From: Candidatus Iainarchaeum sp. | GTDB taxonomy: Archaea; Iainarchaeota; Iainarchaeia; Iainarchaeales; JAFCCW01 | Assembly: GCA_017609985.1 (NCBI GenBank) | Contig: JAFCCW010000004.1 | Location: 23,558-87,557 of the forward strand | Direction of reading: 5' to 3' | DNA length: 64,000 nt | Shown: positions 4,016 to 44,099 of the stretch, in pieces | Layout of the letters: every line of letters begins with the position of its first letter | Position numbering within the stretch: the stretch's first letter is position 1 | Made by a program: the position numbers and the translations under genes | Notes under the pieces: model-generated | Database searches by the model: none | Told to the model about the DNA's origin: nothing | The model's input: the letters and a program-made list of their open reading frames with translations, nothing else

Positions 4016-4732
4016 TCACTCTTTCCTTCCTGTTGAAAACTTTTTTGAAATATCTTCTGAAATTCTCATTTTTGCTGTTTTTGAAAGTGCATCAATTGCA
4101 GCTATTGCAAAATTAATTGTTGTTTTTGTTGCGCCAGAAGTATTGCTCCAAACATCTTGGATTCCTGCAAACTCTAAAACCTTTTTTATATTGTCTCCTG
4201 CGACAAGTCCAATTCCTTTTGGCGCAGGGATAAGTGTTACGCGAACTGAAGCGCATTTTCCCTCTACTTTGAAAGGAACTGAATGCTGATCATTGCATGG
4301 GCACTCCCAGCTTCCACAGCCTCTTTTTATTCTAACCAAATTTAATCTTGCTTTTCTTTTAGCTTTGTCTATTGCAGGCCATTTGTCTGTATCCTTTGCA
4401 GTTCCAAGCCCCACAAGACCGTTTTTGTTTCCAATAAGCACTGATGTTCTGAAAGCAAATTTTCTTCCAGCTCTCACAACTCGAGAAGTTTTCTTAATAT
4501 CAATTATTTCTTCTTGCATTTCCACTAGATAATCAACTATTTCTGGTTCAAGAATTGAAATATTCTTTTCAAATATTTCATCAATGGAAGTAATTTCTCC
4601 ATTTTTAACTTTTTTTCCCAAGCTTGTTTTTGGAACCCAGTTGGTGAGCATAGCTTCCTTGTTCTTTTCATCTTGCTCTCTTCTGCTTTCTTTTCTTCTC
4701 GCTTCTCTTTTTGTTTTGTCATTCTCAGTCAA
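4016..4732 (-). CDS. rps5: 30S ribosomal protein uS5
   Basis: Motifs WVPKTSLG, RGCGSWEC and PAPKGIGLV. Probable TTG start at 4732, 5 nt after GGTGA. Confidence 0.96.
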   Translation of the reverse strand: MTENDKTKREARRKESRREQDEKNKEAMLTNWVPKTSLGKKVKNGEITSIDEIFEKNISILEPEIVDYLVEMQEEIIDIKKTSRVVRAGRKFAFRTSVLIGNKNGLVGLGTAKDTDKWPAIDKAKRKARLNLVRIKRGCGSWECPCNDQHSVPFKVEGKCASVRVTLIPAPKGIGLVAGDNIKKVLEFAGIQDVWSNTSGATKTTINFAIAAIDALSKTAKMRISEDISKKFSTGRKE

Positions 4733-9995: not shown

Positions 9996-10290
9996 TTTTT
10001 TTCCTCCAAAATTCCTTAATCCTGTTTTCTGGTTTTTCTTCAATAAACTTTCCATCAATCCTAACTCTTTCTTTTCCCAATAAAAACTCTATTACAACTT
10101 CCCTTTTTGGAATAATTTTTTCGCCTGAACCTGTTTCAACAACAAGAGTGTTTTTTGTTTCATCAACAACTCTTCCGCACAACCCTTTTCTTGAGCTTTC
10201 CTTGCTTTCCAAGACCTTTACTTCAAGTCCGATAAGCTCGTGTGCTCCAAGGTTTTCTTTTGTTATGCGATATTGCTGTGATTCAAGCAT
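9982..10290 (-). CDS. rnp1: Ribonuclease P protein component 1 (Rpp29)
   Basis: Motifs HELIGLEV, GRVVDETKNT, IPK and PENRIK; canonical position. Confidence 0.93.
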   Translation of the reverse strand: MLESQQYRITKENLGAHELIGLEVKVLESKESSRKGLCGRVVDETKNTLVVETGSGEKIIPKREVVIEFLLGKERVRIDGKFIEEKPENRIKEFWRKKNGMQ

Positions 10291-10585
10291 CAATCAATTC
10301 CTCCTTAAATCCTTTTTTTATCAGGAAATCTTTAACTTTTTTCAGATGGTTTCCCTGCAGTTCAATTTCATCATCTTTTATTGTTCCTCCACAAGCAAAC
10401 TGCCTTTTCATTTCCTTTCCAAGCTCCTGAATGTTTGCATCTTTTTCTATTCCATTTACCGTAGTGACAATTTTTCCAAATCGTCTTCTTACTGTTCTAA
10501 CTTTTATTTTTGTCGATTCTTTTGCGATTTCACTGCAGACACAAAGCGACTGCGGCATTCCACATTTTTGGCAAACTCCACTCAT
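10283..10585 (-). CDS. Translation initiation factor SUI1/aIF1
   Basis: N-terminal CQKCGMPQSLCVC plus RRFGK, ACGGT and IELQGNH. Confidence 0.95.
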   Translation of the reverse strand: MSGVCQKCGMPQSLCVCSEIAKESTKIKVRTVRRRFGKIVTTVNGIEKDANIQELGKEMKRQFACGGTIKDDEIELQGNHLKKVKDFLIKKGFKEELIDA

Positions 10586-26079: not shown

Positions 26080-26493
26080 TCACCTAATCATCATGTTTCC
26101 TATGTTATAATTTCTTTCGGCAATCATTTTAACTCTTTTTAATTTTCTTCCTCTTTCCCTGATTTTTATCTTGCTTTCTGGCGAAAGAGAAACAATTGCT
26201 TCCTTACTGCCATTTTCTTCAACAACATTAACTTTGTCAAAATTTATTTCACTCATTGCTGCTTTTAGAAAAGAACCAAAATCCTGATTGTATGACAGAA
26301 TTTCAATCTTTTTTCCAAGTGCATCATTGAGTTTTTTAACATTCACCGCCTTTTTTCCAATTGCTTTTCCAACATCCTTCGGGGGCACGAGAAAAGAAAC
26401 TATTTCTCGGTCAACCACACAGTCTCTTGCACTCACACCAGATATTGATTCAAGTGCGTTAATCATTCTTATCTGGTCTTCATCAATTTTCAT
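26080..26493 (-). CDS. nusA: Archaeal NusA
   Basis: KH motif VGKAIGKK; lies between L30e and S12. Confidence 0.92.
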
Positions 26494-26804
26494 GCATTCC
26501 CCTTTCCCTTGACTAAGTCAAGCACTTTGCTTTTTCCAACATTTTCTATAGTAAGAGCGGAAATTACAAATGGTTTTCCACAAATGCTTCCCAATGCAGA
26601 AGCAGGTTCTCCAAATTCATAATGTGGAATTCCTGCAACTTTTCCAAGCTGTATAAGTTTTTCTTTAACATTTTCAACTGTATTAGAGCTAAACACAATA
26701 AGTTTTGCACTTCCAGTTAACAGAGCTTTCTCACTCTGTCTGACACCAAAAAGCACTTTGCCAGTGTCAACAGCTCTTCTGATTTCACGTTTTTCATCAA
26801 CCAT
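26490..26804 (-). CDS. rpl30e: 50S ribosomal protein L30e
   Basis: Motifs AVDTGKVLFG and LGSICGKPF. Confidence 0.96.
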   Translation of the reverse strand: MVDEKREIRRAVDTGKVLFGVRQSEKALLTGSAKLIVFSSNTVENVKEKLIQLGKVAGIPHYEFGEPASALGSICGKPFVISALTIENVGKSKVLDLVKGKGNA

Positions 26805-39300: not shown

Positions 39301-39741
39301 TCATTCTTCCAAAATTCTTTTTTCAAAAAACCAGGCAAGCCCTATTCCTGCTAATGGAAGTTCTATCAGGGGAGCAAAAGCCCAGCTTGCAACAATTGCG
39401 AGAGGATAGTTCATTGAAGTAAGCACAAGAAACTGCCCGGGCACTGTTGCAACAATCCAGACAAGAAAGCCAAACACTAATCCTTTTTTGACAAATCCCC
39501 TGGCTTTAACACAGTCTCCAAGCTGTGAATAAACTCCAGCCATTGCTAAACCGTAAACAAATGGGTGAAGAAAAAACAAAAGCATCATTGGGTCGTCCCA
39601 AGCCCTCATTCCTGGTTGTCCAGCCAGCCACTCTCCATAATCTGGAATCATTGCTTCAAATGCAAAATTCATCATAATCATTATTAAAAAAATTATTACT
39701 CCTGCAACAAGACCTGCTCCAACAATCTTTTTCAAATTCAA
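39301..39741 (-). CDS. Four-TM membrane protein (DUF1761-like)
   Basis: Four hydrophobic segments with a KGLVFGFLVW motif; TTG start after GGTGA. Confidence 0.6.
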   Translation of the reverse strand: MNLKKIVGAGLVAGVIIFLIMIMMNFAFEAMIPDYGEWLAGQPGMRAWDDPMMLLFFLHPFVYGLAMAGVYSQLGDCVKARGFVKKGLVFGFLVWIVATVPGQFLVLTSMNYPLAIVASWAFAPLIELPLAGIGLAWFFEKRILEE

Positions 39742-39750
39742 TTAATCACC

Positions 39751-41316
39751 TCATAAAAAAATCTGCTTTACGCTAATAATGTTTTCAATGTTTTTTAATT
39801 TATCCATAACTTCTTCGCTGAGTGCAGAGTCAAGATTTATTATCGCAAGAGCTTTTTCTCCCTTGCTTTTTCTGCCAAGATGCCATTCTCCGATATTTAT
39901 TTTGTTTTCTCCAAGCAGGGTTCCCACTGCTCCAATTACTCCTGGCTTGTCGTAATTTTCCATGAGCAAAATTGTCCCAGCAGGGATAAAATCAGTATTG
40001 AATTCTTTAAGCTGGACAATTCTTTGCTTTTTTCCTTCAAGAATCGCTCCCTTTAAAACCTCGCTCTTGCTTCCATTGGATTTAACAGTTATCATGTTTG
40101 TGTAGTCTTCTTCTTCAAAACTTTTAGCCTGCTTTACTATGATGCCGTGCTTTGCCGCAATGACTGGGGAATTAACATAGTTTACTCCGTCTCTTATTCT
40201 GGAAAGCAATCCCTTGAGAAACGCAACAGTAACAAGTTTTATTCTTCCCTCCATTTCTCCCCGCGCCTCTATTTCAATTCCCTTGCCTGCATCCTCAAGC
40301 TGAGAATGCAGGTTTCCCATTGCCTCGGCAAGCTCAAGAAACGGTCTTAGCTTTATATAGTCCTCTCCTTCAAACGGCAGGTTTACAACATTTCTATAGC
40401 TTTTTTCTTTCAGTGCATCAGCAACCTGTTCTGCAAGCTGAATGGAAACTTTTTTCTGGCTCTCAAAAGTGTTTGCTCCAAGATGAGGAGTCACAAGAGT
40501 CTTTGGGTGCTTCACAAGCTTGCTTTCTTTTGGAGGTTCGTCTTCAAAAACATCAAGGCCTGCTCCATAAAGCTCTCCTTTGTCAAGAGCCTTAAGCAAT
40601 GCTTTTTCATTAACTATTCCTCCTCTGGCACAGTTAATTATCACAGCATTCTTTTTCATTTTTGAAATTTCCTTTTCTCCAATTAAATCTTTTGTTTCCG
40701 CATTCATTGGAGCGTGAATTGTAAGAACATCGCATTTCTCAAGCAGTTCCTCCAAGTCATCAACAAGTGTTGCTCCGCATTTCCATGCTCGTTCTTCTGG
40801 AATGTACGGGTCAAAGGCAAGCACCTCCATTTCAAATGCCTTGCATCTTTTTGCAATTCTGCTTCCAATTCTTCCAAGTCCAATTATTCCAACTGTTTTC
40901 TTGTAAAGCTCAAAACCAGTGAACTGTTTTCTTTTCCATTCTCCCTGTTTGAGGGAATCATTTGCATTAGGAATAGTTCTGCAAAGAGACAACAGCAAAG
41001 CCATTGTGTGTTCCACAGCACTAATTGTGTTCGCATCAGGAGTATTCATTACAATAATTCCTTTTTCAGAAGCACTGTCCAAATCTATGTTGTCAATCCC
41101 CACTCCGCCTCTGCCAACAAGTTTTAGTTTTCCAGAATTTTTCAAAAGCTCGCAATCAATCTTGGTTTCACTTCTCGTCAGCAGAGCATCAAATTCTCCA
41201 ATCAGGTCAAGCAATTCATTTCTTTTAATTCCTTGCTTTTCAACAACTTCAAAACCCTGTTCTCTTAGCATGTCAAGACCGCTTTTTTCAATTTCTCCAG
41301 TCACAAGGATTTTCAT
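39751..41316 (-). CDS. serA: D-3-phosphoglycerate dehydrogenase (long form, ASB + ACT)
   Basis: Motifs RGGVGIDNID, GLGRIG, NCARG, DVFEDEP and TPHLGA; C-terminal ACT domain DKPGVIG. Confidence 0.95.
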   Translation of the reverse strand: MKILVTGEIEKSGLDMLREQGFEVVEKQGIKRNELLDLIGEFDALLTRSETKIDCELLKNSGKLKLVGRGGVGIDNIDLDSASEKGIIVMNTPDANTISAVEHTMALLLSLCRTIPNANDSLKQGEWKRKQFTGFELYKKTVGIIGLGRIGSRIAKRCKAFEMEVLAFDPYIPEERAWKCGATLVDDLEELLEKCDVLTIHAPMNAETKDLIGEKEISKMKKNAVIINCARGGIVNEKALLKALDKGELYGAGLDVFEDEPPKESKLVKHPKTLVTPHLGANTFESQKKVSIQLAEQVADALKEKSYRNVVNLPFEGEDYIKLRPFLELAEAMGNLHSQLEDAGKGIEIEARGEMEGRIKLVTVAFLKGLLSRIRDGVNYVNSPVIAAKHGIIVKQAKSFEEEDYTNMITVKSNGSKSEVLKGAILEGKKQRIVQLKEFNTDFIPAGTILLMENYDKPGVIGAVGTLLGENKINIGEWHLGRKSKGEKALAIINLDSALSEEVMDKLKNIENIISVKQIFL

Positions 41317-42386
41317 TAATTCATCGCCTCAACAATTTCATTAATTGTTTCCAGCAATTCATTCACATCATTTAGGCTAGTGTCCCCCATGTGAGCAATC
41401 CTGAAAGTTCTTCCTGCAAGTTTTCCATATCCGTTTCCGATGAGAAAACCTTCTTTTTCAAGCTTTGAAATCAGCTCTGAAACATCAAGTCCTTTGTTGT
41501 TCTCAACAGCAGTAACTGTTAGGGATTCATAACCTGGTTCTGCAAACAAAGCCCATTCTTCTTCCGCCCATCCCTGAACAAGCTTTGCCATTTCCCAATG
41601 CCTCTCAAATCTCTGCTCCAGCCCCTCATCAAGAATTTCATTCAGTTTATGGTTTAGTGCATAAATTTGTGGAATTGCAGGAGTGCTTGGAGTCTGTGCT
41701 TTTTTATCATATTTTGCAAACTCTGTAAAGTCAAAATAATGCCCCCTGTTTTTGGTTTCAGAAGCTCGCTTAATTGCTCTGTCTGAAACAGATGCCATTG
41801 CAAGTCCTGGAGGGATAGCAAGACATTTTTGAGAAGATGCAAGAAGCACATCTATTCCAAGCTTGTCTGTTTCAATTTTTACTCCCCCCAAAGAACTCAC
41901 TGCATCAACACAAAACATTGTTTCAGGAAAGTCTTGCACAATTTTTGCAATTTTTTCAAGCTTGTTCATGGCACCGGTTGAAGTTTCATTATGAGTTAAA
42001 AAAACAGCATCAAATTTTTCTTTGCTCAACTGTTCTTCAACATCCCCTGCCTTGATTCCCAAACCCCAGTCATATTCAAGCTTTTCTGCTTTCTTTCCAT
42101 TTGCTTTTGCTATCTTAAACCATTTCTCGCTGAAAGCTCCGTTTACAAGATGAAGAGATTTGTTCTGGACAAGATTTCTTGTAGCTGCTTCCATGAGTCC
42201 GCTTCCGGAAGAAGTTGACAAAAAAATTCTGTTATCAGTAAACATTATTTTTCTTAAATTTCCAGTGACCTCTCTGTAAAGTTTAGAAAAGTCTTCTGAC
42301 CTGTGCCCAATCATCTGTTTTGAAAGACTGTTTCTAGTATTTTCACACAAGTTAACAGGCCCTGGAATAAACATTCTCTTAATCAT
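41316..42386 (-). CDS. Class V PLP aminotransferase (serine-pyruvate/phosphoserine aminotransferase type), probable SerC role
   Basis: Motifs IPGP, HNETSTG, DAVSS, SQK (PLP Lys) and FRIAHMG; overlaps both serB and serA. Confidence 0.88.
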   Translation of the reverse strand: MIKRMFIPGPVNLCENTRNSLSKQMIGHRSEDFSKLYREVTGNLRKIMFTDNRIFLSTSSGSGLMEAATRNLVQNKSLHLVNGAFSEKWFKIAKANGKKAEKLEYDWGLGIKAGDVEEQLSKEKFDAVFLTHNETSTGAMNKLEKIAKIVQDFPETMFCVDAVSSLGGVKIETDKLGIDVLLASSQKCLAIPPGLAMASVSDRAIKRASETKNRGHYFDFTEFAKYDKKAQTPSTPAIPQIYALNHKLNEILDEGLEQRFERHWEMAKLVQGWAEEEWALFAEPGYESLTVTAVENNKGLDVSELISKLEKEGFLIGNGYGKLAGRTFRIAHMGDTSLNDVNELLETINEIVEAMN

Positions 42387-43230
42387 CCTGTTTCACCTTC
42401 AATAAAGAATTTAGGTGGCTTCTTATTTTAATTGCTTTTCCTGAAAAATCAACCTGTTCAATCGCAAGTCTTGTTCCCTTTTTTGCAAGCAGGTCTCCAC
42501 CTTCAACAGCTTTCTTTAGTTTCTCTTGTCCAAGAGCAATTGCGTAAAAAGGAGCAAGTGATTCACAATTAATATAAACATCTGATTCTTTCTTCACGTT
42601 CTCTCTTTTCTCCACTCCACCGTATCCTGCAAAAAGCCCCACCTGATTTTTTACTTCAAGATCGCTTGACCCGTCACCAGTGTATATTATTTCCTCTGGC
42701 TTCGCTCCAATTGATTTAATCATCTCAATCTTTCCCTCGCTTTTCCATAAGGGGGATTTTTTATCAAATCCGATGAATTCCTGTTTTTTTCCATTTTCAA
42801 AATCAGAGTAATTCCACCAGTTTCCTGAAAGCTGGTCAAAGAACAATGGAACTGCGAGCACGTTCTTTTTTCTTATTCCAAGTCTCCAGGCAAATTTTTT
42901 CACTGGCTCTGAATAGCCTCCGCTTACAACAAAAACTTCAATTCCATTTTTCCTTAGACTTTCCACAGTTTGCTTTGCATCTTCAACTGCATTCTTTGTG
43001 TAAAGCTTCACCAGCTTTTCAATCTGTTCTCTTGACGGATTAATTATTTTCAGTCTTTTTTGAAAAACCTGTTCAAGTGGAATCTCTCCATCCATTGCTT
43101 TTTTTGTAAGCTCTTCAACTGCCTCAAACTTTCCCGCCAAGCGTGCTAGCTCGTCAATTCCCTCTATTCGTGAAAGCGTGGAATCACAATCAAAAACCGC
43201 AACTCTAAAACTGTTATCAAACAAGAACAA
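42379..43230 (-). CDS. serB: HAD-IB phosphoserine phosphatase
   Basis: Motifs FDCDSTL, EGIDELA, T..AMDG, VSGG and GDGSSD; TTG start after GGTGG. Confidence 0.88.
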   Translation of the reverse strand: MFLFDNSFRVAVFDCDSTLSRIEGIDELARLAGKFEAVEELTKKAMDGEIPLEQVFQKRLKIINPSREQIEKLVKLYTKNAVEDAKQTVESLRKNGIEVFVVSGGYSEPVKKFAWRLGIRKKNVLAVPLFFDQLSGNWWNYSDFENGKKQEFIGFDKKSPLWKSEGKIEMIKSIGAKPEEIIYTGDGSSDLEVKNQVGLFAGYGGVEKRENVKKESDVYINCESLAPFYAIALGQEKLKKAVEGGDLLAKKGTRLAIEQVDFSGKAIKIRSHLNSLLKVKQDD

Positions 43231-43273
43231 GCACCACCAAAAATTTTTGAATGCCTGCTTTATAGTGAGCAGG
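43226..43273 (-). promoter_or_regulatory. Alternative RNA helices (putative attenuator) covering the serB SD and start codon
   Basis: AGCAGG can pair with upstream CCUGCU, or AGCAGGCAUU can pair with GGUGCUUGUU (SD plus UUG start). Confidence 0.55.
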
Positions 43274-43325
43274 AAGATGACGAACTAGAACAAGAGCAAA
43301 AAACTGAATTTCTCAGGGCCATCAT
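43260..43325 (-). CDS. Putative Ser/Cys-rich leader peptide of the serine operon (MMALRNSVFCSCSSSSSSCSL)
   Basis: 21-codon ORF with 9 Ser and 3 Cys. Six consecutive Ser are encoded TCT AGT TCG TCA TCT TCC. Ends 29 nt before the serB start. Confidence 0.7.
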   Translation of the reverse strand: MMALRNSVFCSCSSSSSSCSL

Positions 43326-43364
43326 AAAATAATAAAGGCTCTACTTGTTTTTATTCTTTTCCAA

Positions 43365-44099
43365 CTATGAAAAAACTAGTTTAAACAAATACATTAAGCT
43401 TATTCCAATCGCAAAAGCTCCAAGCGCAGCAACAGACTTTTTCCAGCTTGTTTCCTTTTTTATTTCCGGAATCAAGCCAGATGCTGCAATGTACATAAAA
43501 CTTCCAGCAGTAAATGGGATAAGAGAAACAGCAAGCCAGCCAATATTTCCCATTATAAAATACCCTACAAGTCCGCCGATTATAACAGTCAGTGCAGAAG
43601 CAAAATTAAACAAAAGAGCTTTCATTTTGCTGAATCCGCCATAAACAAGAACTCCAAAATCGCCTATCTCCTGTGGAATTTCATGAAGTGCAACAGCAAA
43701 AAACGTGGTTATTCCAAGCTCAAAACTGGTTAGAAAAGATGCAGCTAAAATTAACCCATCAATAAAATTATGAAAACCATCTCCAATAAGAATCAGGTAT
43801 GACAAAGAATGCTGTTCACATTTTCCGCTGTGACAGTGATGCCAGTGAAGAAATTTTTCAATCGCCAAAAAAACACTAAATCCAATTATTGCAAGAACAA
43901 ACGCACCAATTCCTGGAATTTGCTCTGCAGCTTCAGGCAGCAGATGGAGTAAGGCACCGCCCATAAAAGCTCCTGCTGATAGTCCAACAAGAACAAGCAG
44001 TATCTTGTCCAAAATCTTGTCATTAATTGCAAGTGATACAATGCCTACAAATGCAATAAGTGCAATCGCAAAACTGCTTCCTAAAATCCATTCAAGTAT
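43365..44099 (-). CDS. ZIP family metal transporter
   Basis: Motifs HLLPEA, HWHHCH, DGFHNFIDG and HEIPQEIGDF. The frame stays open upstream of the ORF-track start to an ATA at 44099, adding TM1. Confidence 0.92.
   Translation of the reverse strand: MLEWILGSSFAIALIAFVGIVSLAINDKILDKILLVLVGLSAGAFMGGALLHLLPEAAEQIPGIGAFVLAIIGFSVFLAIEKFLHWHHCHSGKCEQHSLSYLILIGDGFHNFIDGLILAASFLTSFELGITTFFAVALHEIPQEIGDFGVLVYGGFSKMKALLFNFASALTVIIGGLVGYFIMGNIGWLAVSLIPFTAGSFMYIAASGLIPEIKKETSWKKSVAALGAFAIGISLMYLFKLVFS

Follow-up and report, generated by a model that had tools for sequence, protein, structure and literature searches.

In bacteria, the control of amino-acid pathways by leader peptides is textbook knowledge; it requires transcription and translation to be coupled, and its classical transcription attenuators are the enterobacterial trpL, hisL, leuL, thrL, ilvL/ivbL and pheL. 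The resistance genes ermC and cat/cmlA are under translation attenuation, where a ribosome stalled on the leader opens a hairpin that hides the downstream ribosome-binding site (RBS). Here we analyse a Ser-rich frame of 21 codons, the ser leader, that precedes a serB-type gene in Candidatus Iainarchaeum sp. (assembly GCA_017609985.1, contig JAFCCW010000004.1, positions 23,558 to 87,557 of the forward strand). This stretch of 64,000 nucleotides (nt) is the window, and coordinates refer to it unless another contig is named. Judged from its sequence and its relatives, the frame likely acts as a serine gauge of some kind. The reading as a whole, in which it is one of four alike leaders in this genome (Phe/aromatic, Leu, Leu/Val and Ser), cognate to the serB/aminotransferase/serA operon and working through hairpin B, has in our judgement an even chance. 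The elements concerned are:

43260..43325, minus strand: Ser-rich leader frame, 21 codons plus stop, MMALRNSVFCSCSSSSSSCSL

43254..43273, minus strand: helix A, CCUGCU (43273-43268) paired with AGCAGG (43259-43254)

43226..43259, minus strand: hairpin B, 14 bp, -11.5 kcal/mol, 5' arm AGCAGGCAUUCAAA, loop AAUU, 3' arm UUUGGUGGUGCUUGUU

43239..43248, minus strand: A5-U5 palindrome AAAAAUUUUU at the top of hairpin B

43232..43238, minus strand: Shine-Dalgarno sequence (SD) GGUGGUG of serB

42379..43230, minus strand: serB-type HAD-IB phosphatase, its open reading frame (ORF) opening at UUG 43230 and its likely start being UUG 43224

Like the classical attenuators, the ser leader combines a short frame holding a run of codons for its own amino acid with hairpins by the stop codon, the ribosome serving as the gauge. 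It differs from them in its archaeal host, in the leaderless-type spacing of its start and in a hairpin that holds the RBS; where they carry a conserved set of 1:2 / 2:3 / 3:4 hairpins, it has a single stop-adjacent hairpin. Serine, moreover, is not among the classical specificities trp, his, leu, thr, ilv and phe. A scan for intrinsic terminators (a GC-rich hairpin followed by a U run) found 0 sites in 43000-43600, the U5 tract of the locus lying inside hairpin B. The closest match to the working proposed here is translation attenuation of the ermC/cat type, since both hide the RBS in a hairpin. The ermC/cat systems, however, are bacterial, stall their ribosome through a drug and the nascent peptide instead of tRNA charging, and have no cognate-codon logic. 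In the Corynebacterium glutamicum ilvBNC attenuator of Morbach et al. (work of the year 2000), the leader peptide is reportedly made without a ribosome-binding site; the ser leader would share this leaderless or SD-less start, but the former belongs to a bacterium and to a three-hairpin attenuator.

Further bacterial parallels were predicted by comparison alone, as described in the consulted part of PMC1262725: actinobacterial cys leader frames carry runs of Cys codons close to the stop but lack a terminator hairpin, and in the LEU element a run of Leu codons is linked by pairing to the SD of leuA. In this bacterial element the Leu codons themselves pair with the SD; in the ser leader, the sequence paired with the SD is located 3' of the stop codon. 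In Bacillus, TCN serine codons respond to serine starvation (PMC3862929, consulted in part). For archaea, small frames in 5' untranslated regions have been termed 'reminiscent' of leader peptides in the consulted portions of a group of papers (PMC1262725, PMC11456600, PMC10117724, PMC13158618), and the partly consulted full-text literature, which mostly excludes subscription journals, yielded no description of an archaeal amino-acid-sensing leader or of a Ser leader. Among curated Rfam families, only a tRNA reached its gathering score in the window; in 43100-43450 there were 7 matches at E up to 10 (lowest 0.56), all to unrelated families and far below gathering scores. The alpha-proteobacterial serC leader, which we take to be an Rfam family of that name, was not matched here at the gathering threshold.

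The leader contains nine Ser codons (three TCA, three TCT, and one each of AGT, TCG and TCC), eight of them of the TCN type, together with three Cys codons. Codons 10-20 encode exclusively Ser or Cys, giving the tail SCSSSSSSCSL before the stop. Among 1094 intergenic ATG frames of 10-60 codons in this genome, it alone has a Ser run of at least six, and it alone has 7 Ser within 8 residues among the 1252 frames upstream of genes. The gap between leader and serB start is 29-35 nt, and the gene behind the Ser frame is the only serB copy detected in this genome.

A screen of this genome that was blind to function took intergenic ATG frames in which a single residue fills at least 5 of the last 10 positions and a hairpin of at most -10 kcal/mol starts at the stop, the stop-adjacent hairpins being found by a heuristic. 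The residue criterion was passed by 35 of 1085 frames, and seven also passed the hairpin criterion. In three of these seven, a gene on the same strand follows within 260 nt, and each time the frame is cognate to that gene's pathway: a frame ending in WFFNFFFFY before FSA/transaldolase, pheA, a split transketolase, DAHP synthase, aroB, aroA and aroK; a frame ending in LEKLLLLLR before leuA-leuC-leuD-leuB; and the Ser frame before serB. At looser cut-offs 17 frames pass, with the aro, leu and ser frames among the four strongest hairpins; the other 13 are weak and without evident cognate gene. The two partners of the ser leader lie outside the window:

Contig C32, plus coordinates 26548-26640 (L144/L146): aromatic leader, 30 codons, ending in AAAWFFNFFFFY before the stop

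Contig C32, plus coordinates 40174-40263 (L145): Leu leader, 29 codons, ending in LEKLLLLLR before the stop

The aromatic leader has a TTTTTAAAC box at -30 and a hairpin of -17.8 kcal/mol at its stop, with the operon 103 nt downstream. In the Leu leader, a hairpin of -12.3 kcal/mol begins within the stop codon, and leuA follows 126 nt downstream. The ilvB leader of this genome (contig C18, L092, around 4166-4261, minus strand) has a Leu/Val tail and no ATG, a GTG start being possible, and a T7 run stands 3' of its stop. A 7-mer, CAGGCAU, common to the ser and aro hairpins was set aside as a chance event of about 7% by rough arithmetic.

Two other sequences were seen along the way. A Cys-rich frame of 22 codons, MDFRKQFCDCTYCICRHCITCN, occupies 44023-44091 on the minus strand and has a hairpin of -9.1 kcal/mol at its stop; 58 nt 3' of it lies a ZIP transporter gene by gene call (start 43964), the listed ORF opening at 44012. 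On contig C32 (around 10190-10336, plus strand), a threefold QQVLEEC-coding repeat folds into a hairpin of -18.5 kcal/mol, 51 nt before a second isopropylmalate/citramalate-synthase-like gene.

Leaders of the same build recur across the order. An upstream frame holding at least 9 Ile, Leu or Val in its last 12 residues is present at 9 of 29 ilvB loci, against a background of 2 in 1070 genes of this genome, and five more Leu/Val-tailed frames precede leuA. Similarly, 22 of 30 pheA loci have a same-strand upstream frame with a tail rich in Phe, Trp or Tyr; such frames number 25 in 43.7 kb of pheA-locus DNA versus 6 in 193 kb of control DNA. Relatives are not independent, and these locus counts overstate the number of events. 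The Leu/Val set comprises:

Leu/Val-tailed frames before ilvB or leuA: L097, L102, L104, L110-L112, L116, L117, L120, L125, L126, L128, L132

Comparison of the tails (LLLVAVLLLVE, FYFYFWFFK, LEKLLLLLR, WFFNFFFFY and that of the ser leader, each ending at its stop) reveals that the cognate codons are packed into the last ~10 codons and end 1-2 codons before the stop, a pattern that the ser frame fits. A stable hairpin follows 0-5 nt after the stop, as hairpin B does 1 nt after UAA, and it is evident in most of the aromatic copies looked at. The ilvB loci L098, L101, L105, L106 and L114 have no Leu/Val-tailed frame; they have another frame, LQTAAE(K/R)F...QLMR(M/T)L, 55-88 nt upstream, and those at L098, L101 and L105 form family f20.

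The stop-adjacent hairpin of the Leu/Val leaders covaries. In 12 aligned copies (row L120, which is out of register, was retained in the count), 93.3% of cells pair versus 81.9% when shuffled, a level reached by 0 of 500 shuffles; five of the eight pairs are changed on both sides, and slid registers pair at 28-64%. A covariance model seeded with four Leu/Val hairpins returned five new matches, all before leuA, besides two at seed loci; a further match at 26426-26463 of the window lies within a gene and was dismissed as spurious. This genome's own ilvB hairpin was not matched by the 12-sequence Leu/Val model, and the hairpins therefore share build more than sequence. With model R1, the best match over the whole genome had E = 2.3; the hairpin is therefore not a repeated sequence element. 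We note that the A-run/U-run top of hairpin B resembles that of several Leu/Val copies, and that its strength is like that of the family.

In sum, the blind screen and the sister leaders indicate that the ser leader, tied to the serB RBS through an RNA hairpin as an earlier note on this DNA had proposed, is very probably regulatory. On balance, we favour the wider view that DPANN archaea run a set of ribosome-read leaders, each a leaderless mini-frame with a cognate-codon tail and a single stop hairpin, a design unlike the terminator/antiterminator one of bacteria, which would be retargeted by codon swap, the ser copy sitting on an operon of probably bacterial derivation.

The RNA quoted in the earlier note is the minus strand of 43277-43225, and both helices are present as it described them. 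In helix A, C43273-U43268 pair with A43259-G43254 (six Watson-Crick pairs, -8.2 kcal/mol), with the leader stop UAA (43262-43260) in the 8-nt loop; its 5' arm does coincide with codons 18-20, but these encode Ser-Cys-Ser and not three serines. Helix B joins A43259-U43250 to G43235-U43226 (10 pairs, four of them G-U, -8.6 kcal/mol), with the U5 tract (43243-43239) between its arms, and covers part of the SD and the UUG at 43230-43228. Both helices use AGCAGG, and they are mutually exclusive. RNAfold lengthens helix B by pairing U43250-A43246 with U43241-G43237, leaving U43236 and G43235 as a bulge and AAUU as the loop. The resulting hairpin B begins 1 nt after the leader stop and encloses both the SD and the first UUG: G43238-G43232 (bulge excepted) and UUG 43230-43228 are paired, and in free RNA the probability of the hairpin, P(B), is 0.89.

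With a 16S rRNA in this genome that ends in GGATCACCTCCT, GGUGGUG makes a good Shine-Dalgarno sequence; SD words are enriched at the gene starts (336 of 1096, versus 1336 of 10558 internal starts). Owing to its spacing from GGUGGUG, the second UUG (43224) is favoured as the serB start over the UUG within helix B. P0001, the database copy of serB, and the 73% homologue P0002 both begin with LFDN at this second UUG.

The response of this RNA to translation was modelled by partition-function folding with a ribosome footprint at each codon, assumed to reach +11 and +14 nt from the A site. As long as the A site lies short of codons 19-22, P(B) remains within 0.75-0.96. Once it occupies Cys19, Ser20, Leu21 or the stop, the base of the hairpin opens: P(B) drops from 0.95 through 0.60 and 0.03 to 0.00, and more of the serB start region becomes unpaired (a share of 0.5, up from 0.2). 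The working proposed here is the following. With Ser-tRNA (and Cys-tRNA) plentiful, the ribosome would run off the leader and hairpin B would shut over the RBS, keeping expression low. With serine scarce, the ribosome would dwell on Cys19 and Ser20, its front edge would cover the 5' arm of hairpin B, the start region would thereby open and serB would be translated. Cys-tRNA would count in the gauge because serine is the precursor of cysteine and the genome has a normal CysRS; a phosphoseryl-tRNA route for the Cys codons was rejected, SepRS not having been found. We infer both the direction of control and dwell on the last codons as the quantity read. The odds that the gauge works by this ribosome-occlusion route fall at, or a little short of, even.

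The same models bear on the switch that the earlier note had put forward, in which a ribosome stalled at early Ser codons leaves helix A intact as an anti-sequestrator and the SD free, whereas fast translation melts A and lets B close. The two helices are indeed exclusive, helix A is the preferred fold during transcription up to the synthesis of base 43228, and it scores somewhat better than shuffled leader tails (z = -1.85, with 4.8% of 500 shuffles doing as well), which is marginal. In bacterial attenuators, too, the terminator is more stable than the antiterminator. However, the probability of helix A does not exceed 0.20 at any stall site, hairpin B being preferred by 2-4 kcal/mol in the whole leader, and ribosomes on Ser14-18 cover helix A's own 5' arm. 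Even with helix A forced, a 7-bp apical hairpin still pairs G43238-G43235 of the SD. Nor does the pairing recur: in 12 Leu/Val sister leaders, helix-A-type pairing (the last nine codons against the first 10 nt past the stop) does not outdo that of shuffled sequences (mean z = -0.01), and visual inspection of this genome's aro and leu leaders shows none. The switch in this form is therefore highly unlikely in our estimate. Helix A is real, yet probably outside the mechanism; as the footprint models are of equilibrium only, a kinetic, co-transcriptional role may still fall to it. An RNA thermometer was rejected, hairpin B beating A at all temperatures from 25 to 90 C.

The position of the stop, 1 nt before hairpin B, also accommodates plain positive coupling, in which any ribosome that finishes the frame unzips B and the Ser codons either lower expression in starvation or are irrelevant. 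A modelled ribosome at the stop removes B entirely, and the gap from leader to serB is short. Such coupling nevertheless has the wrong sign for a biosynthetic operon and leaves the pathway-matching codon runs unexplained, in four operons here and in dozens of relatives; we give it little credence.

The occlusion route must further be weighed against loss of the transcript at or near the U5(-6) tract in hairpin B, by oligo-U termination or by FttA/aCPSF1-type cleavage, with RBS occlusion secondary; the earlier note had raised termination of this kind as its alternative. Here a ribosome held on the last Ser/Cys codons would abut the polymerase and shield the nascent RNA, so that starvation would lead to read-through; in a variant, the polymerase would pause at the U run inside the hairpin. 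This termination version has the correct sign of control and would unify the family, since the sister hairpins mostly miss the downstream SD. Counted from the first base of the stop, the end of a U run falls at 23-27 nt in 6 of 14 Leu/Val-tailed leaders and in 4 of 23 aromatic-tailed ones, all chosen by tail composition, and at 23 nt in the ser leader. By footprint size, 23-27 nt would put the polymerase in contact with a ribosome at the frame end. A related strain, moreover, retains and lengthens the U run. Against this, 6 of the 14 Leu/Val and 8 of the 23 aromatic leaders have no T4 at all within 70 nt, the density of T5 or longer runs after stop codons is not above that of other intergenic DNA, and the terminator scan returned no site. 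A T5 just before the SD is common (12 of 263 SD genes; 11% of SD genes within -30 to -5), and the U5 tract was rejected as a special signal for being so common before SDs in this genome. We regard termination, its variant included, as unlikely.

A number of observations weigh against a serine gauge that acts through hairpin B. Six of the nine Ser codons (Ser13-18) lie too far upstream, a modelled ribosome there leaving B closed, and the apical AU stem keeps part of the SD paired until the ribosome is at Leu21 or the stop. The hairpins of aro, leu and most relatives lie 29-126 nt before the gene and do not hold its SD, and the common mechanism may therefore not be RBS occlusion. Model R2 (12 Leu/Val hairpin sequences, 8 pairs; E-values of covariance models are rough) matches hairpin B weakly, with 10.8 bits at 43264-43228 on the minus strand: its stop-codon columns align to the leader UAA, and E is 2.6 over the window (rank 9 of 27) and 0.007 when only the 171-nt intergenic stretch is searched. 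Among the 215 genomes of the phylum searched, serB was found in this one alone, leaving no orthologous ser leader to compare, and the gene set (ORFs of at least 100 codons with a simple start rule) is crude.

The promoter region adds to these points. Two motifs lie upstream of the leader:

43348..43361, minus strand: weak TATA-like motif with B recognition element (BRE), GAAAAGAATAAAAA, 36 nt 5' of the leader ATG, at leaderless-gene spacing by position weight matrix (PWM)

43329..43342, minus strand: higher-scoring TATA-like motif AGAGCCTTTATTAT, score 6.1 (attained in 6% of control windows)

In this genome, SD-less genes have a TTTAAA-type box at -30 to -25 of the ATG, and their transcripts are therefore leaderless. 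The leader ATG has a weak box at this spacing and a T-rich stretch at -8 to -3. Its combined start score is 5.54, a value attained by 33% of no-SD genes and by 4.8% of the 2719 intergenic ATGs used as controls (density ratio ~3); the PWM was derived from 291 no-SD genes and scored on these same training genes. From this we infer a leaderless-type transcript that would start at the leader ATG from the motif at 43348..43361. The best TATA-like motif (43342), however, predicts a transcription start at ~43306, within the leader frame; alternatively, this motif may mark where the ZIP transcript ends in a U-rich stretch. No sigma-70 promoter was found at the locus.

A start inside the 'frame' would suit coincidence, namely that a pyrimidine-rich 5' region reads as Ser/Cys by chance and that B is ordinary. 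Indeed, taken alone, helices A and B are not statistically special. The 141-nt fold is unremarkable (z = -0.33; 72 of 200 shuffles as stable), as is that of the 56-nt segment (z = -1.22; 11% of 1000 shuffles as stable). Among 532 SD-led genes, the serB start region ranks 34 by folding energy and 56 by RBS pairing, and 9 of the 532 are as extreme on both together; among the stop-adjacent hairpins of intergenic small frames, hairpin B ranks 38 of 1085, 3.5% being as strong. Ser-rich frames are common antisense to genes in this genome, and very many windows were examined. Yet the blind screen found three cognate frames out of three, the same build is conserved in the order for two other amino-acid classes, and the Ser codons are of five different kinds, AGU included, with no tandem repeat in the leader region by Tandem Repeats Finder. 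We therefore hold coincidence to be improbable.

On the minus strand, the order 5' to 3' is the ZIP transporter gene (stop 43365), a 135-nt spacer with the leader frame, serB, an aminotransferase gene and serA, and a 146-codon ORF lies 3' of serA in the ser operon region. The genes behind serB are:

41316..42386, minus strand: class-V aminotransferase, overlapping serB by 8 nt

39751..41316, minus strand: serA, D-3-phosphoglycerate dehydrogenase (TIGR01327, 649 bits; cut-off 454)

The serB product scores 82.7 bits with the HAD-IB profile, above the cut-off of 45, and 113 bits with TIGR00338 serB, short of the cut-off of 144. The aminotransferase falls below every NCBIfam cut-off (serC_3, 99 bits), and its operon context suggests the role of a phosphoserine aminotransferase. 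The genome (1.16 Mb in 37 contigs, 86.6% complete) is that of a DPANN-type archaeon; its archaeal nature follows from a split of RNA polymerase subunit B into B'' and B'.

A related strain, present in a public DNA run, keeps the leader frame, with changes only in codons 3-5 among the differences listed. It has 7 substitutions in 43115-43285 and a U run longer by one U (one A inserted behind 43238 on the plus strand). Divergence is just ~3-5% across serB and the spacer, so that the unchanged Ser block does not amount to significant conservation; in the ZIP gene, divergence is ~16%. The shift falls near the ZIP stop codon (~43363), at the edge of the ser operon, and looks like a recombination or transfer boundary.

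With this query, searches of another 195 genomes of the order (E <= 1e-20) and of another 214 of the phylum (E <= 1e-25) found no serB-like gene. The 73% homologue, P0002, is encoded on a JGI metagenome contig of 2870 nt; metagenome scans for serB-relative DNA, with the window protein and P0002 as queries, gave no match. Relatives in the genome collection are bacterial only, at 39-45% identity and nearly all labelled Chloroflexota-type, and the nearest relatives apart from P0002 are likewise bacterial, 39-48% identical. The lack of relatives in the phylum and the bacterial nearest serB suggest horizontal acquisition of the ser operon (39301-43230), probably from bacteria. At bacterial serB loci, a search for a Ser leader found a Ser-rich small frame in 2 of 80, at distances of 161 and 325 nt; on the view that the operon was acquired, its leader would thus have been built or adapted in the archaeal lineage.

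If the ser leader is read correctly, it adds a specificity, Ser/Cys, outside the classical set. One genome would then hold a natural codon-swap experiment: four operons with four matching codon runs on the same build. The hairpin of the ser copy visibly holds the RBS, and the mechanism is therefore testable with a simple reporter. DPANN organisms are usually seen as metabolically dependent; this genome would keep regulated Ser, Leu, Ile/Val and aromatic pathways.

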